In this document: piece by piece, positions 7,241 through 60,764 of the stretch
How positions within the stretch are numbered: position 1 is the stretch's first letter
Layout: every line of letters starts with the position of its first letter
Assembly: GCA_052327205.1 (NCBI GenBank)
Contig: JBMRGM010000043.1
Coordinates: forward strand, 30,938,001-31,002,000
Direction: 5' to 3'
DNA: 64,000 nt
Origin: Somniosus microcephalus
Taxonomy: Eukaryota
The notes under the pieces: generated by a model
What the model saw: only the letters and a program-made list of their open reading frames with translations
Database searches by the model: none
What the model was told of the DNA's origin: nothing
Position numbers and translations under genes: made by a program

Positions 7241-7249
7241 TGCACATTA

Positions 7250-28700: not shown

Positions 28701-28789
28701 GTAATTTCTGTCAATTGTTCGCAGCTGTTGCTAAGCGAGATGATAATTACAGTTCTAGATAATGTTGGGATATTCCTCTGCTTGATATA

Positions 28790-38098: not shown

Positions 38099-38280
38099 GT
38101 AAGTACAGACTCGGGATCTGTGCGTGCAGGCGTTTGGTACTGAAGAATTAGAACAGTGTCAGCGGCTGAATGTGATTCTATGATATCACTTTTCAGGTGA
38201 ACAGAACTGAAAACAGCTGATCCGAAGCGCGCGTCTTCACAGAGGGAGGTGGACTGCTGCTCGGATCCCCCGCATTCGAA

Positions 38281-41200
38281 ATGAAGCACATCTGTCGCCT
38301 TCTGATCTTCAGTAAGTGAATCTCAAATATTTCCAGTGCCTTTGAAAGTCAACGTCACTCACCCCTGACAGTTAATCAGATTAATAAGACTCATTCTGTG
38401 AGAGGGATCATCACGCTATATTAATATTCAGAGATTATTAAGGTCAAACATTCATTTAAAATGCATTGAAATGTCATTTCTATGCTTCAGTTTTAATCAA
38501 AATTGAATGCAACAACAGAAATATGTTTGCTTAGTCAGGCTAACAGGATCTTTCTGCTCATCTAAGGGGATCCCTCTTTACTATTAAAGGTTGCAGCCCA
38601 CTTAAGATTGCTTCTAAACGGTCCAATGTTCATTATTTTACCAATTATTTAGCATCACCTGCAGAATCTGGTTGGACATTTCTTATTGTTCTAGTTTTGC
38701 TTATGAGGAAAAAAAAAATTTATACGCTTCATATCAAGTATCAGCGTTGGCTCAGTTGACTCACTCTTACAAATTGCTATTAATACATGCGGTGAGATTT
38801 AAAGTGCCTGGCTTCTGTAGCTAGATGTTAAAATTGGTCCGTATCATTGCTTGATGATTCGAGATCCACAGGCAAGTTTCTTGTTAACATCTGCCACAGA
38901 GAGAGAGAGAAAGATAGAGAGCAAGAGAACGGCAGAGCGAGAGAGAGATAGGGACAGAGAGAGACAGATAGACAAAGATAGGAAGAAAGTAACAATCTAG
39001 ATGTGCACGAGGGAGAGTGACAGAGAGAGTGAGAGCGAGGGCAGGAGTGTTTTTCAACTCAGCTTTTCACATTCTTTATGAAGGGCTTATTTTATTTTCA
39101 GGTGTGAGGGACAAAATATATATTAGCGGGACGACATCCCTTGAGTTAACAAAGCTGAGGAGAACACATTTACTATGATTTTACTTGAGCTAAACTGACG
39201 GCTTTAGGGTGTTTGGCAGGGAAATTAAAAATGCTGGATCTTTAAAATTAATTTCTGATGCTGTTTACTGGAATTTAGAGATAAGTGACTCTTTATGGCC
39301 ACATGACTTTGAGGCTACCTTTGTGAGATGCTGACGTCAGCGCTCTATTGTCTTGTTACCCACTGGACCACAAGACCAGCAAACAGGAACAAATAACAGG
39401 GTTTGCATCTTTAATGTACCACCGACTCTTTCACCAGAATCTCATCTTTTTCAATAACTTGACATTAGTTGTGGGACCATGTTGATTAAATCTAGTTCGA
39501 CAGATTAATGAGGTAGAGCATAAAAGATGTGAAGTTAATCTCAAATTGATCATTCTTAAGCATATAATAAGCCCCATGATTTATTTGTTGCACAGCACAT
39601 GAAACCCACTTTTTGGAAATATTGGCCTAACTGAATGCTTGAAACATTCACCCTATTGAGTCCCAGCTGGACGAAAGTCCCAGCGTTTACATGTTGAACA
39701 ATGAAATACAGACACATCTGCACTGATCATTGACCCGTTTGCAATTATTTTTGCAAAGTTGCAGCGACAGGCATTGCCTTAATAGTGTGATTCCTGTGGT
39801 CTGAGGTGTGATAAAAGCTTTCTGCTGCTTTCTGCTTCTAGCTGCTGGGTCATGTATTGTCTTCACGAGTATCAGTTGCAACCCTGGCAATACTTGTAAT
39901 TCTGATTAGGTTAAAGATGAGTTCACTGATAATAGGAACATAACAACAGGAGTAGGCCACTCAGCCCTTCGAGACAGCTCTGTCATTCAATTATATGATG
40001 GTTGATCTGTACCTCCACTCCAGTTAACCTACCTGGCTCAGTATCCATTGTTACCCTTACTCAACTAGTGTCAGCCGAGGCTCAGTGTATAGCATTCTCG
40101 CCTCTGAGTCAGAAGGGTCGTGGATTCCGTTCCTACTACAGGGACCTGAGCACAATCATCTAAGCTGATACTCCAGTGCAGTGCTGAGGGAGTGCTGCAC
40201 TCTCGGATTGGCTGTCTTTCGGATGAGACGTTACAGTGAGGCCCCTTCCAGGGTGTTTATCCCTGATGCCCTGGGCAATAGTTGTCCATCAATGACGTAA
40301 CAAGAACAGATAATCTGCTCATTATCAACATCATTGTGTGAACATTGGCTGCCACATTCCTACAGTCACTTAACTTTCAAAGTCTTTCATTGGTTTTAAA
40401 ACGCTTTCGGAAGTTCGGAGGTCTTGAAAGGTGCTATAGAAACGCAACTATTTCTTTCATTTTAATAAATAAATGATCGATCTCCATCTTTAAAGCACCA
40501 ATTTACGTTCCTCTAAAGTCTCATCACCCTGTAACACATCATGTCCTTCATCCAATTGCCACTATTGTTCAATCTTTCTGAAGGTTCTTCCTTTGGAATT
40601 CGTGTCTTAGCTCTCTTGTCCCTCTCCTCCTTAACCCAGCATGTACAAGGGCCGACACAATCCCTGTTGTTCATGGCCCCAGCCAAAGCTGTCACACATT
40701 CACCAGTCACTATTTCACCTTCATCTAGCCAACGGCCCATTCTAAGATGGATAATTCAACCTCCTCAAATTCCTTTCATTCTATGTCTTTTCCAAATTAA
40801 TTTTTAATTAGCTTTGCAAGCAGTTCTGCTAAACAAACTTCAAATTCTATCTGTAGAGATTATAATATGGTTATTAGTAACAATAGTCGAAACAAAGGTT
40901 GGGACTTCACTGGCCAAATTAACAAAGTCAAAACCCAAAATTACATACAACAGATATAGCAGGCCTGGCTGGGCGATCCTATGGACCCCTGTGTGGAATG
41001 TTTATGCCTCACCTAATCTAACCGATTAAATTCATTTTCTCAAATTATAATGCACGTTTTCCAGGAAAAGGAAACTTCATCAGTCACTCACTTCTCTCAT
41101 GCCGAAACATACAGCCATGTAAACACAGTATTATTGGTGTAGCCATATACATTTTTAGCCACCCCTAGTTTCTAACAGTGCTTTTCAGAATAGGTATGCA

Positions 41201-44036
41201 TCTGGGCAAGGGGCAGAACAATAAGTGGCAGCATCACTCGTGGTTAGTGTGAGGAGGTGATGTGGCTTAAAGGATTTGTAATTCACTATATGGGAACACC
41301 TTAAAGGTTTCTGCACGTCTTTTCTGCATTAATGCATTTAATGTACGTTTGTAAATATTTAGAATTGAGATGACTGAATATATTTGCTGTTAAACAAAGC
41401 CAACTGTACAACAATATTTACTACAACTTGCTGAATTAGGTCTCTTCCTATTTTATCCAGATAATTCTTCAAGAATTTCACAACTGGGGTAAGTCCGAGA
41501 ATTTTTTATATAAATAAGACATCGTGATACCCCTGAATATTTCTGTATAGCTGAATTAAATGTGGTAAATGTTTGTGCGGTAGATTTTTAACTTGCTTTG
41601 AGCTTAAATCTGGCATTGGTATCAACTGCCTATTATAGAAATCGTCTCATTGTATTTCATTTGAATTCAATGGGATTGAAAATCATTTGCTTTCTACAAC
41701 CGGAGCCAGTTCCGCGATGCCATTTCTAAGCCGGGTGGCAAGTTGAAAATATGTCCCTTTGACTATAGGCATCAATAGTAGCTCGCACTCACACTATTAT
41801 ACTCTCTGCAGTCTGGAAGAAGTGATCTTTTTTCTAATTTATGTCAGTTGTACCTAAACTTCCTAGCCTAAACTGAGTGAAATTCGCCCTGCATGGTTCA
41901 GTAAAAGGGACAATTACAAATCGTTTTACAGTCCACACGAAATTAGATTCCAGTGACTTGTGAACGATTTTGTGAAGAAGACTTTATACCCCAAACTCTC
42001 CATCACTCAGTGAGCTTGGCCATTCTTCAATCCTCACATTTAATTCATCATGTAAATCACAGGGAACTGAAGCATTCTCGGATTTAGTGTGCAGGGCGAT
42101 TGTGCATGTATTTAATTTTAGTAACATTCAAAGAGTGACTATCTCAGACAGTGCTCCATTTAACTGAACACGCTTTTCTGGATACAGTTCTAAATTTAGT
42201 AGCCTTGAAACCTTTTGTTGGGAGCGAATATCTCGTCCCCTTGTGAATCCAGTCACAGATTGTTGGCCGACTCTACTATACTGGAACTCTTTCCACATGT
42301 GTTTCAACCTCTTACTGAAAGTTGCTTGAAATTCCGATATGCTTCCATGGCCCTCAATTTGAAACTGTAGTACAATCTTCTTGAGCTTCGGTATAAACAC
42401 ATATCTGTATACAAAATCACCAATCCACTCATTATCATAAATAGTTTTGCCAAAAACTTCTCACTCTTCTTTCAAGACTGCACTTTATCAAAATACTCTA
42501 ACTCCTTTCAAGGCTCTGTCTCACAGGTTTTGGAACCAACCTTCTGACTCAGCTGTAATATTCAGGAAGAGTCTAGTATGTTTTTTTAAATGAAAATGAT
42601 ATAAAAATTGTACTCCCTGCGCCAGATGTGGGAAATCTGCTGGGCAGAACACAGAAAGGAAGATCTGGTGGGAAGGATCTCTTGCTGAAAGCAGCAATGC
42701 TTGATTTCTGTTCCATTAAGTACCGTGAATGGAAAATCCGGCGTGTTGTGTTAAGGATGTGTGAAACTCTGCACCACATTCTCCTCTTTGCGTTCCTTCA
42801 ACATAATTCTTAAAAAAAATGGCAGGGAAAAACATTTTACCCCATGAACTTGCAAAAATACCAACTAAAATTTTAAGATGATCTCTCTTGATTTATAAGT
42901 TACACGGTTGTGATGTATCTCAATATTCTCTACACTTTCCTAATTCCCTTTCAACTCTGCACCCACAGTTTTTCCAAACAGATACCCAAATATCAAAGAT
43001 ACAATCTTCCATTTATTCGGTATTGACATCTCCCTTCCATTTAGGACACAATCGTGTGAAGTTCATTTTATGGTGGAGTTGAAAACAGCTGCTAATGGAT
43101 CGCTGGCCACTTTTACCCACCGCCTGATTTTGTTTCCAAATTCAGCTGAAGTGTAAACCGAGTGGTTAATCCTCTACCGCCCGCTTTCTGCTGGACGGTA
43201 AAAGTGAATATTAACATCAACTTTCCAACTTGCCGCTCCAGAATAAACTGGCATTATTGTCAGCCATCCATTAGAGATAGCGCCCGATTTTCCTTTGAAT
43301 TAATTTCGAATTTAGAATAATGCGGCGAGTGCTGTTACTGGGCTTCGATTCCTCCACCAGATTTTTCAATTCTGTACTTGTCCCAGTTGATTCTTACTGC
43401 CCAGGCGGTAATGTCGATCATATACACACCTCCAGCTGTCACTCTTAACAGTTAACAATCTTCAACGATGAGCAGTATAACTTCATCTGGGGCCACAGCA
43501 CACAGCGAGCACTAGTGAAAACGTGTCGCTTTTTGGACTCCGCCGATTTGAATTTCCATAAATTATAATGGTTCAAAAATGATCTGGAGGACTTCTAAAC
43601 GGACATCCATTTCGCTACCTCTCGCTTTGAGCTGTCTTCAAGGACCAAATTCAACTCCAGTTAATCAAGTTGAGTGAACACTGGAAAATTTCAGTGAGAT
43701 CATTCAGGATCTGCTGAGACTAGGTCCTCAGACCCCTTGGGAGGAAAGTGCCAGAGCCCGGGCCCCTGTCTACCTTGAGCTTCTTCAACTTATCCAATTG
43801 ATGTGGCCTTGCGATTTTAAAGAATTGTCTCTTGTAAACTGCTTGCTGATTTTTGACAATTAATCTACGATTTCATTTTATTTAAAAGTGATAGTTCCGT
43901 TGTTGGTGATTATTGTTAACTTTAATCTCTGAAAACATATCTGCACCAAGGGAGACAACTAGAAACAGACCTCCAGGTGAAGAGAAGTCTGCAGACAATT
44001 CCGAGTATGCAGCTGTGGAATCAGCGCAAAGCACCG
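38281..44036 (+). pseudogene. Unit B: internally deleted FcR-like paralog (exons S1 38281-38311, C1 41461-41488, C2 43951-44036)
   Basis: S1 MKHICRLLIF; intron homology to gene A stops at about 40510 and restarts at about 41190 in the TM-C1 intron; no S2, Ig or TM exon between; C2 encodes ..NSEYAAVESAQST. Confidence 0.75.
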
Positions 44037-44415
44037 GTAAGCTCGACCTAATCTGCATGTGATGAACCGTAGATTGTTCGGGGTAACATTTCCAGCGGGA
44101 GCACTCTCAATACTGTTATGGCTTCGGTGGAAGATCGGCGAAATCTCCAGACAGATGAGCCTTTCTGCAAGTTTTCAACCGAAATTCCACAGAAGTTACG
44201 ACGAGGCTGTGGGAAAAGCCACATAGAAATTCTATTTCCTCATCTGCGTACATTCAACACAATATAGCGTTAGATTTTCCCCTTCACCGTCTGGACTTTC
44301 AGCATCAATATCTCTAACAATTTCTCAAAGTCTATGTCAAGTCTATTCCTATGTCTCTGCCTATGTCTATGTCTCTGTCTATCTCCAGCTCTATGCCGAA
44401 ATCTATGTCTACCTC

Positions 44416-45538
44416 AAAAAGAAAATACTGCAGCTGCTGGAAATCTGAAATAAGAACAGTAAATACTGGAGATACTCAGCAGGTCAGGCAGCATCTGTGA
44501 AGAGAGAAACAGAGTTAACGTTTCAGGTCGATGACCTTTCATCAGAACTGGAAAAAAGCAGGAAACAGAACAGATTTATAAGCAAATGTAAGAGCTGGGA
44601 AAGGGGGGAGGGTATGAAAGAACAAAAGGGAAGGTCTGTGATAGGATAGAAGGCTGGAGAGGTTAAGAGACATTAAGAGATATTCAAGGCAAAAGGAATT
44701 CGTAATGGGGCAGGTTAAGGAATAAAGGATGGCTCTAGATGAAGTGTAAATTGCGCTGGCAGAATGAAAGACAGTTGCCATGTGCGAGGGAAGAACAGAA
44801 GGCACAAACAAAAAATGTGGATAAATCATATATATCTGATAGAGGCCGAGGTTATGATCTGAAATTGTTGAACTCGATATTGAGTCCAGAAGGCTGTAAA
44901 GTGCCTAATTGAAAGATGAGGTGCTGTTCCTCGAGCTTACGCTGAGCTTCCATGGAACAATGCAAGAGGCCGAGGATGGTGAGGTCTGAGTGGAAATGGA
45001 GCGGTGAATTAAAGTGACAGGCGGCCGGAAGCTCGGGGTCACCCTTAAGGACTGAACAGAGGTGTTCCCCAAAGCGGTCACCCAATCTGTGTTTGGTCTC
45101 CCCAATGTAGATGAGACCACATCGTGGGCAGTGAATACAGTATACTAGATTACAGGAAGTACAAGTAAATCGCTGTTTCACCTGGAAGGGGTGTTTGGGG
45201 CCCTGGACAGTGGGAAGGGAGGAGGTAAAAGGGCATGTGTTGCAAATCCTGCACTTTCATGGGAAGGTGCCGGGCGAAGGGGAAGGGGTGTTGGGGTTGA
45301 TACAGGAGTGGACAAGGGAGTCGGGGAGGGAGCCGTCCCTTCAGAATGCTGAAAGTGGAGGTGAGGGGGAAGATGTGTTTGGTGGTGGGATCACGCTGGA
45401 GGTGGTGGACATAGTGGAGGATGATCCGTTGAATGTGGAGGCTGGCGGTGAAAGGTGAGGACAAGTGGAACTCTATCGTGGTTCTGGGAGGGAGGGGCAG
45501 GGGTGAGGGCAGGAGTGCGGCAGTTAGAACGGACACGG
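44416..45538 (-). mobile_element. Penelope-like element, 5'-truncated, with probable 14-bp TSD
   Basis: GIY-YIG ORF 44852..45181(-); flanks tctatgtctacctc (44402-44415) and tctatgtcaacctc (45539-45552); empty site near 61149. Confidence 0.88.
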
Positions 45539-46889
45539 TCTATGTCAACCTCCATCACTATGTCTATAACTATCTCCATGCCTATGTCTAGCTCTACCTT
45601 TATATCTCTATCTCTATCTCCACGTCCAACTCTCTTATCTATATCTCTCTGTATATCCTAGTCTCTTGCATTCAATCTCACTCTATTGCTCTAACTCTCT
45701 ATCCTTTGTACCTATCTATCTCTATCTCTCTATCTGTCTGTATATATCCATTTCTATCTCTATCTCTCCTCTCTCTATGGGCTGGATTTTTCGATCGGAG
45801 CCTTCCTGCGGATGGAGGCCTCCGATCGGAAAATATATAACATATAAGAACTTATCTGCTGGCTGCATAGGTCCCTCGACTTCCGATCCTGGGCCTCTGC
45901 TCTACGAAATATGCAGAGGCCCAGTTATCTCAGGGGTGCAGGCGGTTCGCAAGCGTCCCTGGGATCACGTGGGCCATGGGGAGTGGGCCATGGGGAAACA
46001 GTCAAAGATGGGAAACCCCCTTCACACTTTTGAAAGGTCTCTACTCACAGATCTTTCAAAAGTATGAAAGGGGATCACTTACAAATAAGTTAAACATTAT
46101 TGTTTTTCAAATCCCTTTTTAAAAATTAGTTAAAATTACATTAAATTAAATATTTTGAAGAAAAATTTGTTTTTGAAAAAAATATAGTTTTTTAAGGAGG
46201 TATTATAAATACCTACATTATAAATGTGAAAAAATAATCATTTTTTGTTTTAATTTCTTATGCTGGTGAAAGCAAGCATTACACCTGTGTTTACCAGGCG
46301 TAAGATTTTGAAAGCTTTTCAGCAGGCAGAAGTTGTGCAGAAAGCGGAATTCTTCACCGGCGGAGGTCCTTTTCCCGGGCAGGTGGAGGATCTGTTAAGA
46401 AAATTCTTGACAGATCGGATGAGCCGGGTTTTAATGCATGCGCTTCACATGCCTGAAACTGGCACTTGCGAGGTCCCTACAGGTGAGTGCACAACTCGTA
46501 CATACCCGGTGTGGGAAAACCGGCCCCATATCTCTAACACTATCTCAATGACCAAGTCTATGTCTAGCCGACTTCTGCATATTTGTCCATGTCTATGTCT
46601 GTGTCTATCTCGAGCTCGATGTGGATATCTATGACTACCTCCATCACCATGTCTATAACTATCTCCATGCCTATGCCTAGCTCTACCTACATATCGCTAT
46701 CTCTATCTCGACACCCATTGACCTCTCCTATCTATATATCTTTGTATATCCCAGTCTCTCATTCTATCTGTATCCCTCACTTTAAATCAACATCTCTCTA
46801 TACCTCTAACTCTCTATCACTATGTACCTATCTATCTCTATCTCTCTATCTCTGTATCTCTCTCTGTACCTCTCTATATCTGTCTAAAC
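44611..46889 (+). repeat. Near-identical segmental duplicate of window 1-2273
   Basis: Base-by-base match with few substitutions and one 6-bp indel; identical ORFs in the track (1050/45666, 1644/46260). Confidence 0.95.
45779..46527. mobile_element. MITE-like element (copy of 1163-1911)
   Basis: Same TIRs and body, inside the segmental duplication. Confidence 0.65.
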
Positions 46890-47185
46890 AATGTCTTATT
46901 ACTTATGGGGGTAACAGTTAAAATTAAGTGTGCTAAAGCGTATCGGCAGTCAATGGAATAGAAATTGGGCTGTGTATATAACGGATGACCAATCTGCTGC
47001 CATCGGTTTTTCACAGCGGCCAAACATGAATTCTCTCACCTCTAATTTCAGCAGCGTGGGGAAGCAAAACTCTGAGCCTCTGCTGCCTCGGGTACCCCTT
47101 CCATTCCGTTAGCTCTTGGCAATCATAACTCTATCTTTGAATTTTCAAAGGAGCAATCAAATGCATATTTTGTTCTATTTGATAG

Positions 47186-47464
47186 AGCTCTTCTCCAAAC
47201 CTACACTGCGGGCTGAGCATGAAGCTCAATTATTTGAGGGCGAACAGCTAAAACTCGCCTGTTTGGTTGAAACATTTCCCACCAGTTCTTCTTTGAGTTA
47301 CGTATTTTACAAAGATGGACAAGCTCTCATTTCAGCAGCAGACCACAACTATTACATCAAGGATGCATCTGGGCCTGACGATTCAGGGATATACCGGTGT
47401 GAAGCAATTACTCTGAACAGCAAGGTGAAGAAACTGAGCAATCACGTTTCAGTGTCAGTCAGAC
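47186..47464 (+). CDS. Unit C Ig exon (D3-type)
   Basis: gatag acceptor, C|gtgagt donor, 279 bp; ELFSKPTL..LAC..FYKDG..DSGIYRCEA. Confidence 0.88.
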
Positions 47465-48346
47465 GTGAGTAAAATGTACTGCAATTATTTATCATCTTTC
47501 ATTCACTAAATTACCAACACATGCACACAATGGGATTCTTCCTTCTGGTACACGGCTTACCTATATGTTTAAAACGCACTGCATAAATGAATTGAATAGT
47601 AGATAAATATTTGTATATTGATACAAAATATTCGTTGTGCCACAGATAATATGTGCAATTGGGGGCAGTGATTTGCAAAAAGAACATTAAACTCATAGAA
47701 AACGGGCAGTGTTAATTCACCAACATGGCGCCATGCATGGAAACACTTATGATCAGGCTAGGCTTGAGCTATTGGGACTGATATTATAAGAGTAACCAAG
47801 GCTTAGCGGACATTTATTAGTGTTTTTTACAAGGTAAGGGTGACGATAGAGCGAACAGGGAAACGTATTTCCACTGAATGCGAAGTCAGGAAGGAGGCAC
47901 CATCAATGCTTATTTATCACTATAAGCGGGAGGGTAGCGTTTGGAAAAAAACATCCTTATGAGAGGATTGCTGAAACATAGAATGATTTGCCAGATAGAG
48001 CGGTGGAGTTAGATACCATTAATTTTAGGTAGAATAGTGTTTATGATTCTGGAATAGTGCAGCCTTCCTGCCTTTGACTAGCAGAGTCAGTAGGAATCAG
48101 GAGCAGGCTAAATATAGTAGGGTGTTCATAAGTGGATTGCTGTAGGAATCATTGTAGTTCCAGGATCACGATTTCCTCTATTAAATGCGCCTACTGCCCA
48201 AGTAGGAGATGGAGTAGGGCGCCTAATATTGGTGTGGTAACCTAAATGACGAGGCTCTTTATTATGATGAAAGCCCTATTTCACTTTGAAAGTAGCACCA
48301 CAAATTCTAACAAAGCAGTGTAATTAACATGTGGATATATTTATAG

Positions 48347-48634
48347 GAATGACAGTATCCAAACCGGAACTGGCAATCAGCCCTGGTAAAGAGTTAATGG
48401 AAGGAGACACCGTGTCATTAACCTGCTCAGTGTCCAACGGTTCTACCCCGATTACGTACATTTTCTACAAAGACTCAAGTAATGAAATCTACCGAGAGGA
48501 ATCCGACCTAAGCGAAATTACTCACCAAATCGGTAACGTCAACAAAAGCATCCAAGGAGATTACAGTTGCGGGGTTTCAAATGAGGCAACAGAACCTCCT
48601 CTACGCAGCGAATTCTTCTTGGTTACAGTGATAG
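48347..48634 (+). CDS. Unit C Ig exon (FCRL D5-like)
   Basis: ttatag acceptor, G|gtgagt donor, 288 bp; VSKPEL..EGDTVSLTCSVSNGSTPITYIFY..GDYSCGVSN..RSE. Confidence 0.88.
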
Positions 48635-48709
48635 GTGAGTTGTTATACGTACCTCTGCAGCAGAACGAAACAAGTGATTCAATAACTGGTCAGCCCGGGA
48701 ATTGTTGCT

Positions 48710-48947
48710 GGTGCCGTAAGCTTATAAGCTGTAACATCTTCCTTGACATCTATCTGCTGTCGCTATCCCAAAATGCACGCTCCTGAAAGGTGCCATAAGC
48801 TTGGAAGCTGTAACATCTTCCTTGACATCTATCTGCTGGCGCTATCCCAAAATGCACGCTCCTGAAAGGTGCCGTAAGCTTGGAAGCTGTAACATCTTCC
48901 TTGACATCTATCTGCTGGCGCTATCCCAAAATGCACTCTCCTGAAAG
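48710..48947. repeat. 79-bp tandem repeat, 3 copies
   Basis: Units start at 48711, 48790, 48869 (gtgccgtaagct..gacatctatctgctg..ctcctgaaag), nearly identical. Confidence 0.92.
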
Positions 48948-49093
48948 CAGAGCGCAATGATTATTGTAAGGGTCCTTCTCTGAGCCGCTGTACATATTTC
49001 ACTGTATGATCATTAACATGTGTTGTGCTAACACAGAAATTAAGTCTGTGATAGATGCTATAGTTGGCAAATTCATATTTTTTTTTTATATAG

Positions 49094-49372
49094 AGGCCTT
49101 CTCCAAGCCGGAATTGAGGGCTGAGTCCGAATCTCAATTATTTGAGGGTCAACAGTTAAATCTCGAATGCTTGGTTAAGGTATATCGCTCCAGTTCTCCT
49201 TTGAGAATCCTATTTTACAAAGATGGACAAGCTCTCGATACAGCGGCAGGCAACATTTATTACATCAAGGAGACATCTCGGTCAGAAGATTCGGGGATTT
49301 ACCGGTGTGAAGCAACAACGTTGAACAGCGAGGTGAAGAAACTGAGTAATCAGGTTTCAGTTTCAGTCAGAC
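49094..49372 (+). CDS. Unit C Ig exon (D3-type)
   Basis: atatag acceptor, C|gtgagt donor, 279 bp; EAFSKPEL..LEC..FYKDG..DSGIYRCEA. Confidence 0.88.
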
Positions 49373-49546
49373 GTGAGTACAATTTACAGCAATTATTTAT
49401 CATTTTTATTCCACAAAAGTACCAACACATGCTCACAATGGGATTCTTCAGTCTGGCACAGGGCTTATCTATAAGTTTAAAAAGGACTTAATAAATAAAT
49501 GAATAAATCCGGGCATATAGAACAAGGGTAGATCAATTTTTATATA

Positions 49547-50329: not shown

Positions 50330-51175
50330 AACTAGAAATTTGATTTGGGCGTTTGTGAAAAACCGGCAGTATTGACTGGCCGCCCGTTATACCTAGCACC
50401 AGAAATACAGTGGGCTGCATTTTCCGACTCCCACGGTTGTGTACGAGGTGTGTACGCATCTGTAGGGGCCTCGCAAGTGCCGGTTTCAGGCATGCGAAGT
50501 GCATGCGCTGAAAAGCACTTGTGATCTGTCAAGAAACCGCTTGATGTATCATCCACCTGCTCAGGAGAAGTGCCTCTGCGGGCAGGGAGTTACGGTTGCT
50601 GCAAATCTTCCGCCCGCTTAAAACTTTTAAAAATCTTACACCTGTTAAAAGCAGGCGCAAGGCCTGTTTTTACCAGCATTAGAGTTTACATAAATAAAAA
50701 AATTAAAAGATTTTACTCATTTTTAAGTTTAAAAATACCTTTTCAAAATGTATGTTTATTTTTAGGCCAGTAAAAAACTTTAATTACTTTTTTCAAACAA
50801 TTAAATTTTTATTTAATATTAAATTTAATTTAATTTTAACTAATTTTAAATACATGAATTTTTCAATTGAATTAATATTTATCTCTTTTTAAATGTGATC
50901 CCCATTCATACTTTTGAGAGATCTACGCGTAGAGACCCGCCAAAAGTGTAAATGGGGATTTCCTTCTTTGATTGGTTCCCCATGGCCCACGTGATCCCAA
51001 GAGCGCATGCTGATCACATGCACCGATGGGATACCTGGGCCTCTGCGTATTTCATTCTGCAGCGGCCTCGGATCGGAAGTCTCGGGACATAGGGATCCAG
51101 CAAGTAAGTGCGTAGATTTTTTCCGATCAGAGGCATCCGCACGCAGGAAGCCTCCAATCGGAAAATCCGGTCGAC
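50330..51175 (-). mobile_element. MITE-like element, diverged inverted relative of 1163-1911
   Basis: Reverse-strand match (MPETGTCE pseudo-peptide in both, same subterminal hairpin); absent from paralogous intron near 48070. Confidence 0.65.
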
Positions 51176-51429
51176 TGTGATTGACTGCACTATTACTGAA
51201 TATCAGGCGCTCATTTATCACCACTGCCCGTTATTCACCAGCGCCTGAGACAAATTAGCATAGTCAGTACGAATCAATACCAGGCTGGAGATAGTAGGGT
51301 AGTCTCAAGTGGACTGCATTAGGAATTAATGTAGTTCCAGGATCAGGCTTTCCTATATTAATTCCAACTGCTGCCAAAGTAGAAGATGGAGACGGGCGAC
51401 CAATATTGGTGTAGTAACCTGAATTACAG

Positions 51430-54400
51430 TGCTCTATACTGTGCTGAGAGCCTCATTTGATTTTGAACGGAGATGGCCTATCGGGGGAAGGCAGCAGTAG
51501 CCAACTTCCTTGCTCCGTGGGTGGTTGTGTTGCACAGGACGGGGGGGGAAAACGAGCGGGAGAGCTGAAGTAATGGGGGATTCTAGTGTAAGGGGAATAG
51601 ATAGACGTTTCTGCGGCTTTAAACGAGACTCCAGGATGGTGTGTTGCCTCACTGGTGCTAGTGTCAAGAGTCAAGGGTCTCGGAGTGGCTGCAGGACATT
51701 CTGCAGGGGAAGGGAGAACAGCCAGTTGTCATGGTGCATATAGGTACGAACGATACAGGTAAAAACAGGGATTTGGTCCTGAAAGATAACTACAGGGAGT
51801 TAGGAGGTAAATTAAAACATAGGACCTCAAAGGTAGTAATCTCAGGTTTGCTACCAGTACCACCTTCTAGTCGGAGTAGAAATAGAAGGATATTTCAGAT
51901 GAATACTTGGCTAGAGGAATTGTGCAAGGGGGAGGGAATCAAATCCCTTGGATATTGGAACCGGTTCTGGGGGAGGTCAAACCAGTACAAACTGGACAGT
52001 TCACACCTGGGCAGGACAAGGACCAATGTCCTAGGGGGAGTGTTTGCTCGTGCTGTCGGGGAGAGCTTAAATTAAAATGGCAGGGGTTTGGGTACCTGTG
52101 CAGTGAGACAGAGGCTAGGGAAGCAAGGATAGCAGCAAAAGACAGGAAGGAGACAAGCAAAGTGGCAGTCATAGAAATCAAGGGTGTAAATCAAAGACGG
52201 CCACAGTAAGTAATAATTGTTTCCTGCATAAGACTGTTTAAAAAAAAAAGCTTGAAGTCTTTGCGTCTTAATGAGAGGAGCATTCGTAATAAGGTGAATG
52301 AATTAGCTGTGCAAATAGATGATATAATTGGGATTACGGAGACATGGAGCCAGGGTGACCAAAGCTGGGAATTCAACATCCAGGGGTATTCAATATTCAG
52401 GAAAGGCAGGCAAAAAGGAACAGGAGGTGGGGTAGCATTGCTAGTTAAAGTGTAGATTAACACATAATTAAGGAAGGATATTAGCTCTGATGATCTGGAA
52501 TCTGTATGGTTGAAGCTGAGAAATAGCAAGTGGCAGAAGACGTTCGTGGGAGTTGTATACAGGCCCACAAAGAGTAATGCTGAGGTTGGTGATGGCATGA
52601 AATGGGAAATTAGAGATGTGTGCATTAAGGGCACAGCAGTTATCATGGGTGACTTTAATCTACATATAGATTGGGCTAACCAAATTAGTAACAATACTGT
52701 GGAGGAGGAATTCCTAGAGCGTATACGGGATGGTTTCCTGGACCAATATATCGAGGAACCAACTAGTGATCAGGCTATCTTAGTCTGGGTATTATGTAAT
52801 GAGAAATGATTAATTAGCAGTCTTGTTGTGCGAGGCCATTTGGTGAGGAGCGATCATAATATGATAGAATTCTTCATTAAGATGGAGAGTGAAGTATTAG
52901 ACTCAGAGACTCGGGTCCTGAATTTAAATAAAGGAAACTACGATGGTATGAGTTGTGAATTGGCTAGGATAGATCCCAGATCGTTACTTAAAGGGTTGAC
53001 GATGGATAGTCAATGGCAAACATTTAAAGATCGCATGGATGAACCACAGAATTTGTTCATACCTGTTTGGCATAAAAATAAAACAAAAAAAATGTGACTC
53101 TACCGTGGCTAACATGGGAAATTAGGGACAGCATTAGATCCAAGCAGACGACACATAAATTGGCCAGAGCGGGCAGCAACCCTGAGGATTGGGAGCAGCT
53201 AAATATTCAGCAACGGAGGACAAAGGGATGAATTAAGAGGGGGACAATAGAGTATGTGAGTAGTCTTGCAGGGAATATAAAAACTGACTGAACAATCTTC
53301 TATAGATATGTGAAGCGAAAAAGATTGGTGAAGTCAAGCATAGGTCCCTTGCAGTCAGAATCAGTGGAATTTAAAATGGGGAACAAAGGAATGGCAGTCC
53401 AAGTACATACATATTTTGTTTCTGTCTTCACAAAGGAGGACACAAATAACCTCCAAGAAATGTCGGGGAACATAGGGTCTAATGAGAGGGAGGAACTGAA
53501 TGAAATCAGAATTTGTAGGGAAATGGTGTTCAGAAATTGATGGGATTGAAAGCCGATAAATCCCCAGGGCCTGATAATCTACATCCTAGCGTACTTAAGG
53601 AAGTGGCCCTAGAAATAATAGATGCATTGCTGGTCATCTTCCAAAATTCTATAGACTCTGGAACAGTTCCCTTGGATTGGAGGGTAGCTAATGTAACCCC
53701 ACTATTTAAAAAGGTGCTAGAGTGAAAAAGATGAATTATAGACCGGTAAGCCTGACATCAGTAGTGGGGAAAATGCTAGAGTCCATTATAAAAGATGTAA
53801 TAGCAGAGCACTTGGAAAACAGTGAGAGGATCGGACAAAGTCAACATGGATTTACAAAAGGTGAATCAAGCTTCAATAATCTTCTGGAATTTTTTGAGGA
53901 TATAACCAATAGAAGGGGGGCACGGTGCATAGTGGTTAGCACTGTTGCCTCACAGCGCCAGGGACCCGGGTTCAAATCTGGCCTCGGGCGACTGTCTGTG
54001 TGGAGTTTGCACATTCTCCCTGTGTCTGCGTGGGTTTCCTCCGGGTGCTCCGGTTTCCTCCCACAGTCCAAAGATGTGCAGGTTAGGTTGATTTGGCTAT
54101 GATAAATTGACCCTTAGTGTTAGGGGATTAAATACGTGGGGTTACGGGGATAGGGTGGGATATGTGTCGGTACAGGCTCGATGGGCCGAAATGGCCTCTA
54201 TCTGCACTGTAGATTCTGTGATTCTGTGATTCTGTGAAGAGATAAGGGAGAACCAGTGGATGTGGTGTATTTGGACTTTCTGAAGGCATTCAGTAAGGTG
54301 CCGCATAAGAGATTAGCGTGCAAATTTAAAGCACATGGGATTGGTGGTAAGGTACTGCCTTGCATAGAGAACTGTTTGGCAGACAGGAAGCAAAGAATTG

Positions 54401-55458
54401 GAGTAAATTGATCATTTTCTGAGCGGCAGGCAGTGAGTAGTGGGGTACCGCAAGTTCGGTGCTAGGACCCCAGTTATTCATAATCTGTATTAATGATCTA
54501 GACCAGGGAACTAGATGTAATATCTCCCAGTTTGCAGACAACACAAATCTGGGTGGGCGTGTGTGCTGTGAGGAGGATGCCGAGAAACTCCAGTATGATT
54601 TGGACTGGTTAGGTGATTGGGCAGATGCATGGCAGATGCAGTATAATGTGGATAAATCCACTGTGATGGCAAAAACAGGAAGGGTGATTATTATCTGAAC
54701 GGCAATAGATTGGGTGAAGGGGAAGTGCAATGAGACCTGGGTGTCCTTGTGCACCAGTCGCTGAAGGTAAGCATGCAGGTGCAGCAGGCGGTTAAGAAGA
54801 CAAATGGTATGTTGGCCTTCGTAGTGAGAGGGTTTGAGTGCAGGAACAAGGATGTCTTGCTGCAGTTGTACAGGGCCTTGGTGAGACCACACCTTGAGTA
54901 TTGTGTGCAGTTTTGGTCGACTTGTCTGAGGAAGGATGTTCTTGCCATGGAGGGAGTGCAGCGAAGATTCACCAGACTGATACCTGGGATGGCAGGAATG
55001 ATGTAAGAAGAGAGATTGGGTCGATTGGTCTTGTATTGGCTAAAGCTTAAGAGAATGAAATGGGATCTCTTTGAAACTTATAAAATTCTAACAGGACTAG
55101 ACAGACTAGATGCAGGAAGGATTTTCCCAATTGCGGGGGAGTCCAGAACCAGGGGTCACTGTCTAAGGATAATGGCTAAGTCATTTAGGACTACGATGAG
55201 GAGGAATTTCTTCACCCAGAGAGTGTTGAACCTGTGGAATTCTCTACCACAGAAGGCAGTTGAGCGCAATTCATTAAATATATTCAAGAAGGAGTTAGAT
55301 ATATTTATTAAGGCTAAAGGGATCAAGGGATATGGGGAGAAAGCAGGGACAGGGTACTGAGTTTGGATGATCAGCCATAATCTCATTGAATGGCGGAGCA
55401 GGCTCGAGGGGCCGAATGGCGTACACCTGCTCCTATCATCTATGTTTCTATGTATCTA
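51430..55458 (+). mobile_element. Near full-length decayed CR1 LINE: ORF1 esterase, APE endonuclease, RT
   Basis: VMGDSSVRG..MVCCLTGA..VHIGTND (SGNH/GDSL ORF1); IIGITETW, IMGDFN, SDHN (APE); QHGF, FADNT, RPHLEYCVQFW (RT); (tctatgtt)n tail; many stops/frameshifts. Confidence 0.93.
53915..54235 (+). mobile_element. Young tRNA-derived SINE (HE1/V-SINE-like) nested in CR1 RT
   Basis: A/B boxes (tagtggttagc, gggttcaaatc), core gtgtggagtttgcacattctccctgtgtctgcgtggg, (gattctgt)3 tail, gaag on both flanks. Confidence 0.85.
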
Positions 55459-55681
55459 AATTGGGCTGTGTATATAAAGGATGACAAATCTACTGCCAGA
55501 TGTTATCCACAGCGCCCAAATTGAATTATCTCCCCTCCAATCTCAGCAGCATCGGGAAGCAAAACTTCTGAGCCTCCGCTGTCTCGGGCATCACTTCCAT
55601 TCCGTTAGATCTTGGCAATCATAACTCTATCTTTGAATTTCCAAATGAGCAATCAAATGCATATTTCGTACAATTTTCTAG

Positions 55682-56489
55682 AGCACTTCTACAAACCTAC
55701 ACTGAGGGCTGAGCCTGAAACATAGAAACATAGAAGATAGGAGCAGGAGTCGGCCATTCGACCCCTCGAGCCTGCTCCGCCATTTAATAAGATCATGGCT
55801 GATCATCCAAATTCAGTACCCTGTCCCTGCTTTCTACCCACATCCCTTGATCCTGTTAGCCTTAAGCAACATATCTAACTCCTTCTTGAAAATAATTAAT
55901 GAATTGGCCTCACACTTCCTTTTGTGGTAGAGAATTCCACAGGTTCTCCACTCTCTGGGTGAAGAAATTCCTCCTCATCTCTGTTCTAAATGGCTTACCC
56001 CTTATCCTTAGACTGTGACCCCTGGTTCTGGACTCCCCGACTATCGGGAACATCCTTCCTGCATCTAATCTGTCGAGTCCTTTTAGAATTTTATAAGTTT
56101 TATTGAGATCCCCTCTCATTCTTCAAAACTCCAGCGAATATAAGCCCAATTGACCCAATCGCTCCTCATACGGCATTCCTGTCATCCCAGGTATCAGTCC
56201 AGTTAATCAGCGCTGCACTCCCTCCATGGCAAGAACACCCTTCCTCCGATAAGGAGAACATCCTTCCTCAGATAAGGAGAACATCCTTCCTCAGATAAGT
56301 TACTTGAGGGCCAACAGTTAAAACTCGCCTGTTTGGTTGAAATATTTCGCTCCAGTTCAGCGGCAGACCACAACTATTACATTAAGGAAACATCACGGCC
56401 TGACGATTCGGGGACTTACCTTGGTAAAGCAACTACTTTGCACAGCGAGGTGAAGAAACTGAACAATCAGGTTTCAGTTTCAGTCAGAC
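55682..56489 (+). pseudogene. Unit C D3-type Ig pseudoexon split by a CR1 insertion
   Basis: EHFYKPTLRAEPE (55682-55719) / CR1 / LLEGQQLKLAC (from 56300); 45-bp deletion removing the FYKDG strand; second Cys is Gly (TYLGKA). Confidence 0.88.
55720..56299 (-). mobile_element. CR1 3' fragment inserted in Ig exon
   Basis: ORF 55910..56119(-) MRRNFFTQRVENLWNSLP; acatagaaacatag tail; 23-bp triplication at the truncated 5' end. Confidence 0.9.
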
Positions 56490-56682
56490 GTGAGTACAAT
56501 TTACTGCAATTATCTATCATCTTTCATCCACTAAATTACCAACACATGCACACAATGGGATTCTTCATTCTGGCACAGGGCTTATCTATATGTTTAAGAT
56601 GCACTGTATAAATAAATGAATATATCCGTACATACTTGAAACCGTATTATGTTATTCATGGGATATGTTTATTTTATTCCAG

Positions 56683-56784
56683 TGCAGATTCACACAACCG
56701 CGATCAGAGCCTCAGTTTTTACACTTTTTCTTGTTGCTGCCCTGATTGCACTGGTACTCGTCAATCGTCCCAACAAGAAACAAG
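56683..56784 (+). CDS. Unit C transmembrane exon with Arg (activating type)
   Basis: ttccag acceptor, AAG|gtgagt donor, 102 bp like gene A; QIHTTAIRASVFTLFLVAALIALVLVNRPNKKQ. Confidence 0.88.
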
Positions 56785-57312
56785 GTGAGTCATGTTTTAC
56801 AGGCAGGTGATTGGCTCTATAGTCACGTGAAGGGCTTCAGTGTATTCTATATTCAGTTGCGACATTCAAAATGCAACCATATTATTTGGGCAAAAGAGGC
56901 TGGACTGGACTGGGCTGGAAAAAGAAAAATGTTATTTGAAATGACGATCTCAGAACAGACAGGAGCTTAAGACTGGGGCGAATTTGCCCAGTTAAGTGTT
57001 TTTATTTCCCTTTGTGCTGTTCAGAATTGATATGCATGTGGCCGAGGGGTAGAACAATAAGTGGCAGCATCATTCGTGGTTAGTGTGAGGAGACGATGCA
57101 TCCTAAAGGATTTGTAACGCGGTATATGGTAATATCTTACATGTTTCTGTATATCTTTTCTGTATTGATTCTGTATTAATAAGTCATTTAATGCACGTTT
57201 GTAAAAGTTTAGATTTAATGTGAATGAATACGTTTGCAGTTAAACAAATCCACCTGTACAGCAATATTTATTGTACAACTTGCTGAAGTAGGTCTCTTCC
57301 TGTTTTATCCAG

Positions 57313-57343
57313 AAAATTCTTCAAGAATTTCACAATCGCTTGG
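57313..57343 (+). CDS. Unit C cytoplasmic exon C1, ENSSRISQSLG
   Basis: atccag acceptor, GG|gtaagt donor, phase 1-2. Confidence 0.82.
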
Positions 57344-58254
57344 GTAAGTCCACGCAATAATTAGCTAAATAAGCCGTAGCTATATCCCTGAATATACTCA
57401 GTCTCTGTATAGCTGAACTAAACGCGGTAAATGCTTGTGCGGTAGATTTTATCAATTGCATTGAACTTTAATCTGGCATTACGGATCAGCCTCCTGTTAT
57501 AGAAAACACCATATTTTAATTTAATTTGAGTTGAATGGGATTGAAAAACATGTGGTTTCTACAACGCGTGTCTGTTCTGCTACACCACTTTTTATTCCGG
57601 GCACCGAGTTGGAAAATCTGCCCCATTGAAGATAAGCCTTTACTGTAGCTCGCACTCAAACGATTACACTCCCTGCAGTCTATAAGGAGTGATCATTTTC
57701 TAAGTTATGTCAGTTGTACCTGAACTTCCTAACTTAAACAGAGTGAAATTCACCCTGCGTGGCACAGTAAAAGGGGTGATTACAAATCGTTTTACAGTCC
57801 GCAGATTAGATTCCAGTGACTTGTAAATGAATATTGGGCGGAGTGTAAAAACTGTTGGAGTTTCGTTTAACCCTGCTCTCCACCACCACCCAAGAAGAAA
57901 TTATACCCCAAACTCTTCAATCACTCAGTGAGCTGGACTATTCTTTAATCCTCCAATTTAATCCTCATGTAAATCATAGGGAACTGAAGCATTCTAGGAT
58001 TTGGTGTGCAGGGCGATTGCGCATGTAGTTAATTTTAGTAACATTCACACAGTGACTATCTCAGGCAGTGGTCCATTTAACTGAACAAGCTTTTCTGGAT
58101 ACAGTTCTACTATTGATCAGCTTGAACAGTGTTTGTTGGCTTGGAATATCTAGTCCCCTTGTGAATCCAGTCGCTGTTTATTTTCCGACTCCCCTATGCT
58201 GGACATCATTCCACATGTGTTTTAACCTCTGACTGAATGTTGCTTGAACTTTCG

Positions 58255-59570
58255 ATACGCTTGTGTGGCCCTCAGTTTGAAACTGTGGCACTCTTCTAGA
58301 GCTTTGGTATGGAAGCACATCTCTATACGCATTACCCAATCCTGTCATAACCATAAATAATAATTTTTAAAACTTCTCCATCTTCTTTCAAGATTGATTT
58401 TTTTTTTAATTACTCCAACTCCTTTCAAGGCTTTATCTCCCTGGTTTTGTAACTAATCTAGTGACCCAGCCTTTATATTCAACAAGCGTCTAGTATGTTT
58501 CTCTTATTAAAAAGATATCAACATTGTATTCACTGCGCCAGATGTGGGACATCTGCTGGGCAGAGCACAGAAAGGAAGATCTGGTCGGAATGATCTCTTG
58601 CTGAAAGCAGAAACGCTTGATTTCTGTTCCATTAAGTACCGTGAAAGGAAAATCCTGCATGTTCTGTAAAAGATGTGTTAACCTCTCCACCATATTCTCA
58701 TCTTTGCATTCCTTCAACATGATTCTTAACAAACAAATGGCAGGAAAAATCATTGATACCCCATGAACTTGCATCAATACCAATTATAAATTTACGGTTA
58801 TCTTTCTTGATTTCTGTGGCCCTCAATTTGTAACTGTGGCACTCTTCTTGAGCTTCGGTATTAAAACGCATCTCTAAGCACATTCCACCATCCTGTCATA
58901 ATCATAAATAATATTTCAAAAAATTTCTCATTCTTCTTTCAAGACTAATTTTTTCAAAATACTCCAACTCCTTTCATCACTCTGTCCCCTTGGTTTTGGA
59001 ACTAATCTAATGATCCTGCCTTTACATTCATCAAGAGTCTAATATGTTTCTCTTATAAAAATGATATCAACACTGTACTCACTGCGCCAGATGTGGGACA
59101 TCTGCTGGGCTGACAGCATAACGTATGTTCAGTTGGAAGGTATCCCTTGCTGAACGCAGAACCGCTTGATATAAACACATATAAAACACATCTGTATGCA
59201 CATTTCCCAAAAACCTCTTAATCATAAATAATTATTGCTAAACTTCGCATTATTCTTTCAAGACTGAATTTTATCACAATACTCCAACTCCTTTCAAGGC
59301 TCTATCGCCCTGGTTTTGAATGTAAGCTCGTGACACGCCCTTTATATTCAACAAAAGAATCAATGTTTATTTTATTAAAATGATACCAGCACTGTACTCC
59401 CTGCGCCAGATGTGGGACATCTGCTGGGCAGAACACAGAAAGGAAGCTTGGTTGGGAAGGAGCTCTTGCCGAAAGCAGAACCACTTGCTCCCTGTTCCAT
59501 TAAGCTGCGTGCAAGGAAAATCCTGCCTGTTCTGTAAATGATGTGTGAACCTTTCCACCAGGTTCCTCTT
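58255..59570. repeat. Diverged intronic tandem triplication
   Basis: ctgcgccagatgtgggacatctgctgggc at about 58533, 59082, 59401; single copy in unit B at about 42617. Confidence 0.8.
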
Positions 59571-60678
59571 TGATTTCCTCCAACGTGATTTTTAGCACAA
59601 AAATCATAGAAAAAATGTTTTTAACAAAGGACATGCTCCAATACCAACTATAATTTTAAGGTTATCTCCCGTGATTTATAAGTTACACGGTGGTGATATA
59701 TCTCAACATTCTCTACAGTTCCTAATTCACTTTCAACACTGCACCCACTTTTTTTTTTAAACTGATACCCAAATATCAATGATACATTCTTCCTTTTATT
59801 TGGTATTGAATCCTCCCTTCCATTTAGGACACAATGGGTCAAATTTGCTTTTCCAATGGAGTTGAAAGCAGGTGGTAAGGGATGGCCGGCCAGTTTTACA
59901 CACAGCCTACTTTCCATTTCCAAATTCGGCTGGAGTGTAAGACGAGCGGCTGAGCCTTTACCACCCATATTCTGCTGGACGGTAAAAGTGAATATTAACT
60001 TCAACTTTCCAACTTGCCGCTCGGGCATAAACTGCCATTTCTGGTCAGCCGTCCAATTGAGATTGCGCCCGATTATCCTGTGAAACAATTTCGAAGCTAT
60101 GAAAATCCGGCGAGTGCTGTTTCTTACTGCCCAGCAGTAATGTGGATCATATACCCCCCGCCAGGAGACACTCTTACTACGTTACAATCTTCAACCATAA
60201 TCAGTATAACTTAATTTGGGGCCGCAGCACACAGCGAGCACTAACGAATCTATTGCACATTTTGGACTCGACCGATTTTATTTTCCATAAATTTCAATGG
60301 ATCAAAAATGATCTAGAGGATTTCTAAATGGACAGCCGATTCGCTACATTTCGCTTTGCGGTGTCTTCAAGGACCAATTTCTACTGAAGTGAGTCATGAT
60401 AAGGGAAATCTGGAAAATATCTGAGGTAATTCAGGATCTGCTGAGAGAACGACGTTAGACCCCTGGGGAGGAAAGTGCCACGGATCGGCAACCTGTCTAC
60501 CTTGAGCTTCTTCAACTGGTCCAATGGATGTGGACTTGCAAGTTTAAGGTTATGTCTCTTGTAAACTGCTTGCTTGTTTTTGATATTTATTCTACTATTT
60601 CATCTTATTTGAAAGTAACATTTCCGTTGTCCACGATTATTGTTAAACTTTAATCTCTGTGAACATTTCCGCACTTAG

Positions 60679-60764
60679 GGAGGCAACTAGAAACAGACCT
60701 CCAAGTGAAGAGAATTCTGCAGGCAATTCCGAGTCTGCAGGTGTGCGATCAGCTCAAAGCACCG
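60679..60764 (+). CDS. Unit C cytoplasmic exon C2 without tyrosine
   Basis: cttag acceptor, G|gtaagt donor; EATRNRPPSEENSAGNSESAGVRSAQST. Confidence 0.8.

Follow-up and report, generated by a model that had tools for sequence, protein, structure and literature searches.

Cytoplasmic exons ahead of Ig exons in an Fc receptor-like array of Somniosus microcephalus, probably debris of gene turnover

The window, the whole stretch of 64,000 nt that was analysed, holds no N and contains an Fc receptor-like (FCRL) cluster of a cartilaginous fish, according to the best PDB and database matches of its Ig exons and of gene A. Every one of the nearest database proteins in three homolog searches is named Fc receptor-like. 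Among solved structures, exon Ig-a of unit C comes closest to domain 3 of Fc gamma RI (PDB, E 5e-11) and Ig-b to FCRL5 (PDB, E 2.5e-26). Gene A and units B and C hold one Ig domain per phase-1/phase-1 exon and a separate transmembrane (TM) exon, a feature of the FcR/FCRL family given in the excerpted text of PMC2413239. No protein identical to the exons of the window, including those of gene A, appeared in these searches or in one HMMER search, so that the species seems to be unannotated there and the missing model of a chimeric gene is uninformative.

Gene A, the reference for the ancestral exon order, runs S1, S2, six Ig exons, TM, and six cytoplasmic exons (Table 1), colinear with the FCRL-like proteins of horn shark. 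Its signal peptide is split over S1 (31 bp) and S2 (30 bp); leader-exon lengths of 30/21, from which gene A differs, are described for only a fraction of the Xenopus XFL genes in the excerpt of PMC2413239. The elasmobranch FCRL-like genes (RefSeq XP_067878182 and XP_067878416 from horn shark, XP_067833440 from sevengill, and XP_072884649 from stingray) resemble those of this locus in leader, Ig types, TM, and C1-C2, and likewise occur as several paralogs per contig. The Ig exons of unit C are 56-73% identical to elasmobranch FCRL-like proteins.

Table 1. Features of the locus, in window coordinates
Feature	Position	Strand	Remarks
Unit 0 (upstream paralog) 3' tail, intron after C2	1..2272	+	Twin of B tail; unit 0 exons lie upstream of the window
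Gene A	9340..34343	+	Intact FCRL-like, 725 aa; open frame, single terminal stop
Unit B promoter region with non-coding first exon	37469..38098	+	Donor after 38098; 80-84% identity to gene A 8234-8910
Unit B 5' UTR and S1 exon	38197..38311	+	ATG at 38281; coding S1 38281-38311, phase 0-1
Gene A intron 1 homolog in B	38312..40506	+	79-80% to 9371-12109; ends ~430 bp before the S2 position
Junction 1	40507..41177	.	Multi-copy repeat fragment linking intron 1 to the TM-C1 intron
C1 of unit B	41461..41488	+	28 bp, phase 1-2; 3-bp in-frame deletion vs unit C C1
C2 of unit B	43951..44036	+	86 bp, phase 2-1; 77/86 bases match unit C C2
High-copy retroelement fragment, B tail	44415..45538	-	Common to unit 0; missing from unit C tail (B/C alignment gap)
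Twin block (near-identical duplicate of unit 0 tail)	44611..46886	+	Visible part, at least 2.3 kb; left end hidden, as the twin leaves the window
Junction 2	46886..46887	.	Sharp switch from tail to intron upstream of Ig exon
Ig-a	47186..47464	+	Phase 1-1; paralog of gene A fifth Ig exon, 84.6%; Pfam Ig_2 E 1e-11
Ig-b	48347..48634	+	Phase 1-1; domain type lacking in gene A, found in other shark FCRL-like proteins
Ig-c	49094..49372	+	Phase 1-1; second paralog of gene A fifth Ig exon
Decayed Ig exon	55682..56489	+	Third paralogous copy of gene A fifth Ig exon; between Ig-c and TM
TM exon of unit C	56683..56784	+	Phase 1-1; 78% to gene A TM exon; helix without charged residue
C1 of unit C	57313..57343	+	Phase 1-2
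C2 of unit C	60679..60764	+	Phase 2-1; tyrosine motif lost

Unit B holds the only S1/5' UTR exon copy of the window besides that of gene A, in agreement with the first-pass annotation, which regarded its promoter as the sole one between gene A and unit C. The UTR exon is 92% identical to that of gene A and the promoter region is well preserved; the summed DNA depth on promoter and first exon exceeds that of unique bins, and faintly suggests that further close copies exist. Cys6 of the gene A S1 is an Arg in unit B, and no copy of S2 was found within the window outside gene A. At junction 1, S2, all Ig exons, and the TM exon of the B copy are gone. The repeat at this junction has no long match elsewhere within the window and no Pfam match in any of the four frames tried. 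The C2 exon of B retains the ITIM-like tyrosine motif SEYAAV, as previously annotated, whereas the motif has been lost from the C2 exons of gene A and unit C. Horn shark holds an ITIM-like motif at the same place, so the motif is ancestral and its retention needs no selection. The retroelement fragment in the B tail, which we take to be Penelope-like, shows a GIY-YIG match (E 0.0011) below the Pfam cut-off and a depth above 500,000.

The B tail leads into a near-identical copy of the window start. Positions 1-2272 and 44611-46886 are 99.4% identical, with substitutions at 13 sites and a single 6-bp indel in a microsatellite, and the unit 0 tail runs on as a homolog of the unit C tail (1912-4130 vs 61037-62767, 66-79%). 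Identity with unit 0 ends at 46886/7, where low-complexity sequence also ends, and homology to gene A 21111-21382 begins by 46909; unit C here lacks its own promoter and leader as well as its first Ig exons. Junction 2 joins unrelated introns, while junction 1 passes through the repeat fragment. Given the high identity of the tail and the sharp break, the join at 46886/7 looks young, and intact exons are therefore expected; the age of the twin block would date junction 2 only indirectly. A simple tandem duplication was rejected, since the twin with the ancestral continuation is upstream, 44.6 kb off, with gene A between.

Unit C contains three intact Ig exons. Ig-b, 67-69% identical to shark proteins, has no paralog in the window. 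The Ig exons exhibit dN/dS values of 0.41-0.47 and no indels, against 7-25 gaps per kb in the flanking introns, a pattern showing that they were under purifying selection in the past. The decayed Ig exon holds a LINE fragment inserted near its start, a 45-bp deletion, and a stop 14 codons in, and has lost its second cysteine, with acceptor and donor intact. Reading through past the donor of the unit C C2 meets a stop after 8 codons. Paralogs of the gene A exons C3, C4, and C5 and of its last exon are absent elsewhere in the window, including the 3.2 kb after this C2, and there is no tyrosine motif after the unit C TM up to 64000.

Units B and C had been proposed to form an in-frame chimeric gene. 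All nine exons lie where they were first annotated, with AG/GT ends and the proposed phases, and joining them by coordinates yields 403 open codons, as long as the decayed exon, both of whose splice sites are intact, is skipped. The phase fit is nevertheless uninformative as a ground for calling this a gene, and phase compatibility was rejected as a sign of selection: all 720 of 720 orders of six 1-1 cassettes stay open after S1, as do 272/272 ordered pairs drawn from the 17 cassettes of the window. Because every family cassette is phase 1-1, the fit is no better than chance. Chained phases thus mean nothing in a family of phase-1 cassettes, which serves as a warning for similar loci.

The chain departs from functional FCRL genes in several respects. 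These encode a signal peptide over two exons, with a core that is hydrophobic, follow the order leader-Ig-TM-cytoplasmic, and end in a cytoplasmic tail with tyrosine motifs and a stop codon, while in B+C the C1-C2 exons precede the Ig exons. The leader had been described as crippled, and this is borne out by the absence of S2, the Cys-to-Arg change, and weak hydropathy: the best 8-residue value in the hydropathy scan is 1.8 for the chimera (2.1 with C1-C2 skipped), whereas gene A reaches 3.5 and four shark relatives 2.8-3.8. Unlike elasmobranch FCRL-like genes, B+C carries C1-C2 twice and has neither S2 nor, up to 64000, a tail end; within the window the chain is without a second leader exon, a stop or terminal exon, and the three ancestral tail tyrosine motifs, and it keeps none of those of the gene A tail. 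A C1-C2-like stretch occurs in 15 of the 162 proteins fetched, and in 15/15 it follows the last Ig domain. No FcR-family gene with cytoplasmic exons preceding Ig exons was found described in open-licence PubMed Central or bioRxiv texts.

Two known systems offer partial parallels. The Xenopus XFL genes, in the excerpted account of PMC2413239, form expanded clusters with phase-1 Ig exons and birth-and-death evolution, in which inter- and intragenic recombination, domain shuffling, and scattered gene fragments or pseudogenes have been described. However, the cDNA-supported XFL genes always have a two-exon leader, unlike B+C, and the shuffling in that excerpt concerns ectodomain exons, its scheme leaving cytoplasmic exons unmapped, whereas B+C moves cytoplasmic exons. 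The human FCGR2C gene and the FCGR2A/2C and FCGR3B/A chimeras (excerpt of PMC11659932) are likewise young and combine adjacent Fc-receptor paralogs from a cluster of variable copy number, with FCGR2C described as possibly drifting to a pseudogene. In that excerpt, homologous unequal crossover generates the chimeras and leaves their exon order normal. An FCGR2C-type crossover was rejected for B+C, where the breaks are non-homologous and the exon order is scrambled.

Reads were mapped from four of ten candidate runs, namely X1 and X2, which are DNA-like, and the RNA runs X6 and X7. Repeats dominated the mapping tables: 15 joints are listed and a further 235 are left off, and for loose ends the figures are 24 and 2504. 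Not being on these lists therefore proves nothing, and the results rest only on the depth per bin and on the pieces that are listed. X1 and X2, which carry two organism labels, come from one study and are possibly tied to the assembly; they cover 30/30 bins and yield near-identical pieces on B and C, although at gene A the X1 contigs show as many as 18 differences in 527 relative to the window. Depth in bin 40655-41191 is 3,894 and 7,584, against 25-83 across the next six bins. Summed depth, not to be read as copy number, is 26-29 (X1) and 19-20 (X2) on the C introns, and 49-83 and 25-42 on the B C1-C2 region. One X1 contig (40993-41415) bridges the right edge of junction 1 with 0 differences; among the 16 pieces listed of ~137,000, none crosses 46886/7 or the left edge of junction 1.

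About one quarter to one third of each RNA run was sampled, with tissue unspecified. The junction reads that the first-pass annotation had called for were not seen: depth is 0 on the B C1 and C2 exons in both RNA runs, as well as on Ig-b, and no exon-exon joint is among the 15 listed, with 235 further joints off the list. About 4 sense reads fall on the S1 bin in X7, without Ig-a depth, and about 6 on the Ig-a bin in X6, without Ig-b depth, so there is low-level transcription of S1 and Ig-a or of close copies of them. Gene A, used as a control, received about 4 reads on its last exon and 3' UTR in X7 and 0 in X6, and this near silence gives the RNA comparison low power for the expression of the chimera. 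In the run search, no RNA run was listed as covering 46700-49450, which carries no weight either way.

The most probable reading is that B+C is real and constitutes young birth-and-death debris of the FCRL array, without a working protein. In the window, a promoter, leader exon, and first intron of gene A type are linked, via a fragment of a repeat, to a C1-C2-tail block from another paralog. This tail is nearly identical to the paralog end that lies immediately ahead of the window, and it switches abruptly to an intron preceding the Ig exons of unit C, a paralog truncated at its 5' side. Two non-homologous breaks probably produced this order, either by two deletions, one internal to B and one separating it from C, or by one templated insertion, where an upstream block of ~6 kb would have taken the place of S2 and the leading Ig exons in a single gene. 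The frame stays open because all family cassettes are phase 1-1, and the exons are intact, probably because they were part of selected genes until recently; under assumed inactivation rates, the probability that 1179 exon bases survive intact by chance at the age of the twin block is 0.5-0.85. If the B promoter fires, the spliced product would lack a signal peptide, its Ig domains would be held in the cytosol, and it would be degraded. Ig-domain disulfides would not form in the cytosol. Of the exon shuffling originally proposed, the rearrangement of paralog parts stands and is probably young, while calling it a gene on account of its phases is not supported, and no evidence of a transcript was seen in the two RNA runs; the non-functional product that was offered as a fallback is the likeliest outcome.

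Against debris stand the intact state of all chain exons and splice sites, the well-kept B promoter region, and the low-level sense reads on the S1 and Ig-a bins. A regular chimeric mRNA from the B promoter, in which C1-C2 are spliced to the Ig exons and the protein is mis-targeted and functionless, would be in line with the canonical splice sites, with the few sense reads on S1 and Ig-a, and with B holding the only S1/UTR copy between gene A and unit C. However, these reads come from separate runs, without Ig-a depth in X7 and without Ig-b depth in X6, B C1, B C2, and Ig-b have no depth, and no exon-exon joint is among the 15 listed; poly(A)-type hexamers inside the B introns (40464, 43242, and 44721) also argue against it, albeit weakly, as they are common. 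This possibility is rather unlikely. An assembly or phasing artefact, where a near-identical block occurring at two places or on two haplotypes was given the wrong neighbour to its left or right and the B leader and unit C never shared one molecule, is unlikely to a greater degree. The twin block adjoining junction 2 is a typical mis-join setting, the break falls at the end of low-complexity sequence, and the lower depth of the C introns is what copy-number or haplotype variation would give. Nevertheless, the window holds no N, 13 sites distinguish the twins, the right side of the break is non-homologous, so that some molecule probably carries it, and the bridging contig at junction 1 matches fully in a run that diverges from the window at gene A.

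The first-pass annotation also considered a mis-oriented product, an idea of low probability. A functional new FCRL of this kind, without a signal and inserted inside-out by its only TM, so that the three Ig domains and the ITIM-like motif face the cytosol to serve as an intracellular inhibitory adaptor or decoy, is very improbable. The same holds for a stable spliced mRNA from the B promoter giving rise to it, as the outcome of a young rearrangement that may still segregate in the population. In its favour, the only hydrophobic stretch of the chimera is a TM near residue 340, and its sole ITIM-like motif, kept in B and lost in the C2 of gene A and unit C, is N-terminal to the Ig domains. On the other hand, the N side of the TM has no excess of net positive charge (+2, vs +3 on the C side), the motif is ancestral, the order is present in 0/15 relatives, neither a 3' end within the window nor a transcript was seen, and the junction seems to be of recent origin. 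Were the chimera expressed and stable, leader loss and the moved signalling exon would flip receptor topology in one step, a switch brought about by a single young rearrangement.

As debris, the locus provides a tidy example of turnover in an immune receptor array. Searches of open-licence PubMed Central and bioRxiv listed no description of it. FCRL genes are stated to be absent from cartilaginous fish in PMC4016189, which is repeated in a 2026 review (PMC13337447), while fcrl3 and fcrl5 have been reported in bamboo shark B cells (PMC11372145). FCRL-like genes in sharks are not new in themselves, as RefSeq already names shark proteins in this way; the contrast between the published absence and the intact FCRL-like gene of this window, within a cluster that is expanding, may matter more to specialists.

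Judged by sequence, the window is an Fc receptor-like (FCRL) cluster of cartilaginous fish, given the layout of its intact reference gene and the database matches of the Ig exons of unit C, the downstream part of the proposed chimera. The reference gene, gene A (9340–34343), encodes a spliced product of 725 residues: its leader is split over two exons, six Ig domains follow, and a transmembrane (TM) helix leads into a tail carrying several tyrosine motifs. The unit C Ig exons match Ig families in Pfam, have Fc gamma RI domain 3 and FCRL5 as their best solved relatives, and find their nearest database proteins in shark Fc receptor-like proteins (56–73% identity), while no identical protein was found when the protein databases were searched with the window exons. 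Gene A has no exon of the type of the second unit C Ig exon (Ig-b), which its horn shark relatives possess, and at 14517–14556, inside the intron after its first Ig exon, a stretch of 40 bp repeats the end and donor of that exon at 92% identity. The first ~45 residues of the sawshark FCRL model P0003 match LINE-derived stretches of the window, and the start of this database model probably lies in a retroelement.

The first-pass annotation described units B and C as a chimeric gene with cytoplasmic exons placed before Ig exons. Its sequence observations were read correctly: the nine exons lie where claimed, all with AG/GT ends, and join into 403 stop-free codons; a copy of the second leader exon (S2) is confined to gene A, and the sole second copy of the first leader exon (S1) and 5' UTR exon is that of unit B. 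The interpretation stands in part, namely for the crippled leader and the faulty product, but not for the phase fit. S1 ends in phase 1, and all Ig exons, the TM exon and the pair of cytoplasmic exons C1 and C2 begin and end in this phase. When the six B and C cassettes were permuted after S1, all 720 orders were open, and so were 272/272 ordered pairs formed among the 17 cassettes of this kind that the window contains. Owing to these shared borders, family parts joined by any accident on one strand give an open frame, and the in-frame fit of the chain means little.

The B–C region was divided by self-alignment into three blocks, with a repeat after the first to which Pfam gave no name.

Blocks, repeat and proposed exons of the B–C region
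Feature	Position	Content	Observation
Block 1	37469–40506	copy of gene A promoter, S1 and intron 1, ~80%	ends ~430 bp short of the place of S2
Repeat after block 1	~670 bp	multi-copy	depth 3,894 and 7,584, against 25–83 in the following bins
Block 2	41178–44408	copy of the end of the TM–C1 intron, C1, C2 and tail	introns 79–84% like unit C
Twin block	44611–46886	twin of window 1–2272 (tail of unit 0, an upstream paralog)	13 substitutions and one microsatellite indel
Block 3	from 46886/7	intron upstream of an Ig exon	gene A homology from 46909
Unit B exons S1, C1, C2	starts 38281, 41461, 43951		
Unit C exons Ig-a, Ig-b, Ig-c	starts 47186, 48347, 49094		
Unit C exons TM, C1, C2	starts 56683, 57313, 60679		

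Identity with the upstream twin ends abruptly at 46886/7, and this position would be a derived join, since past it the twin resembles the tail of unit C instead. Either a recently duplicated copy would have suffered two deletions, or a single templated insertion from the upstream paralog would have displaced S2 and the first Ig exons; both histories are consistent with the window, which cannot separate them.

That the B–C order is an artefact of assembly or phasing is quite unlikely. Of ten sequencing runs listed for the region, four were placed on 32600–48700, namely two DNA-like contig sets (X1 and X2, two organism labels from one study) and two RNA runs (X6 and X7), and the DNA contigs covered 30/30 bins. 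Listed pieces differed by 0–5 bases per 294–569 in the B C1–C2 region and by 0–2 per 419–467 in unit C, and one X1 contig spans the repeat/intron edge at 41177 unchanged. On the other side, none of the pieces listed (16 of ~137,000) crosses 40506 or 46886/7, the latter adjoining low-complexity sequence of a type skipped in read placement. The arrangement is thus probably real, though not proved. Summed DNA depth, which is not a measure of copy number, falls from the B 5' end through B C1–C2 to the C introns, hinting at copy-number variation. Non-repeat bins at 37433–39580 (B promoter, S1, intron 1) have depths of 125–289 (X1) and 72–136 (X2), exceeding those of unique bins and hinting at further close copies of the B 5' end in the genome. 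The gene A 3' region (32936–36955) differs from X1 by 4–18 bases per 370–527, more than B or C, which reads as a divergent allele or close paralog.

As regards the product, sequence and exon layout place the parts of B+C in the FcR/FCRL family, and the tests of the leader and of the exon order expected of a working receptor gave negative results; a functional inside-out receptor is very improbable. The best eight-residue hydropathy of the chimeric leader is 1.8 (2.1 with C1–C2 skipped), compared with 3.5 in gene A and 2.8–3.8 in four shark relatives. Ig domains lacking a signal peptide are expected to stay in the cytosol with their disulfides unformed and to be degraded. A single TM segment is predicted near residue 340, with a flanking net charge of +2 on the N side and +3 on the C side. 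The sole ITIM-like motif lies in B C2, ahead of the Ig domains, and is inherited, as horn shark carries it at the equivalent place; C1–C2-like stretches, found in 15 of 162 fetched proteins, follow the last Ig domain in 15/15. Paralogs of exons C3, C4, C5 and the last exon are absent from the 3.2 kb after unit C C2 and from the unit 0 tail, and read-through at the C2 donor meets a stop after eight codons. An open chain also requires the skipping of a decayed Ig exon between Ig-c and TM, whose acceptor and donor are preserved and whose frame reaches a stop 14 codons from its start.

The remaining rival, a chimera regularly transcribed yet useless, is unlikely, and the RNA outcome neither supports nor refutes the chimera. 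Sense reads number ~4 in the S1 bin (X7) and ~6 in the Ig-a bin (X6), and may derive from paralogs, at 94% likeness; depth on B C1, B C2 and Ig-b is zero in both runs, in which gene A is nearly silent. With ~4 (X7) and 0 (X6) reads on the last exon and 3' UTR of gene A, these runs hardly probe expression. Intactness does not point to selection on the chimera. Paralogous Ig exons gave dN/dS of 0.41–0.47 and no indels, with 7–25 gaps per kb in flanking introns; the exons were under selection while in their parent genes. A young join would leave the 1179 exon bases without an inactivating hit with a probability of ~0.5–0.85, under assumed rates and with the join taken to be as old as the 0.57% twin divergence that would date it. 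B+C is probably a genuine relic of recent origin that yields no working protein.

The tails of unit 0 and unit C (1–8273 and 60764–64000) both lack the C3-to-last paralogs, so the signalling tail of this subfamily may have been lost before the rearrangement. At 4490–4554, in the unit 0 tail, an acceptor opens a phase-1 frame of 22 codons, most of them hydrophobic, that ends in a stop and could be a recruited terminal exon; it lies inside a degenerate local repeat, and no clear copy was found elsewhere in the window. The first UTR exon of B (~38027–38220) holds an upstream ATG whose frame of ~31 codons ends before the main ATG when the UTR intron is spliced. Two LINE 3' ends, presumably CR1-like, lie in opposite orientation at 54921–56260 (87% alike), on both sides of the point where the decayed Ig exon begins, and a possible hairpin in the pre-mRNA could favour its skipping. 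Unit C introns also hold a 79-bp repeat in three copies (96%; 48710–48947) and, between C1 and C2, a degenerate repeat of ~320–550 bp (58261–59677).

For the Xenopus FcR family, PMC2413239 describes shuffled domains, birth-and-death turnover and isolated gene fragments. Young chimeras are known from the human FCGR cluster (PMC11659932) but preserve exon order, whereas that of B+C is scrambled. No account of the locus or of this exon order was found in a search of the open-licence literature. [quoted passage not shown]
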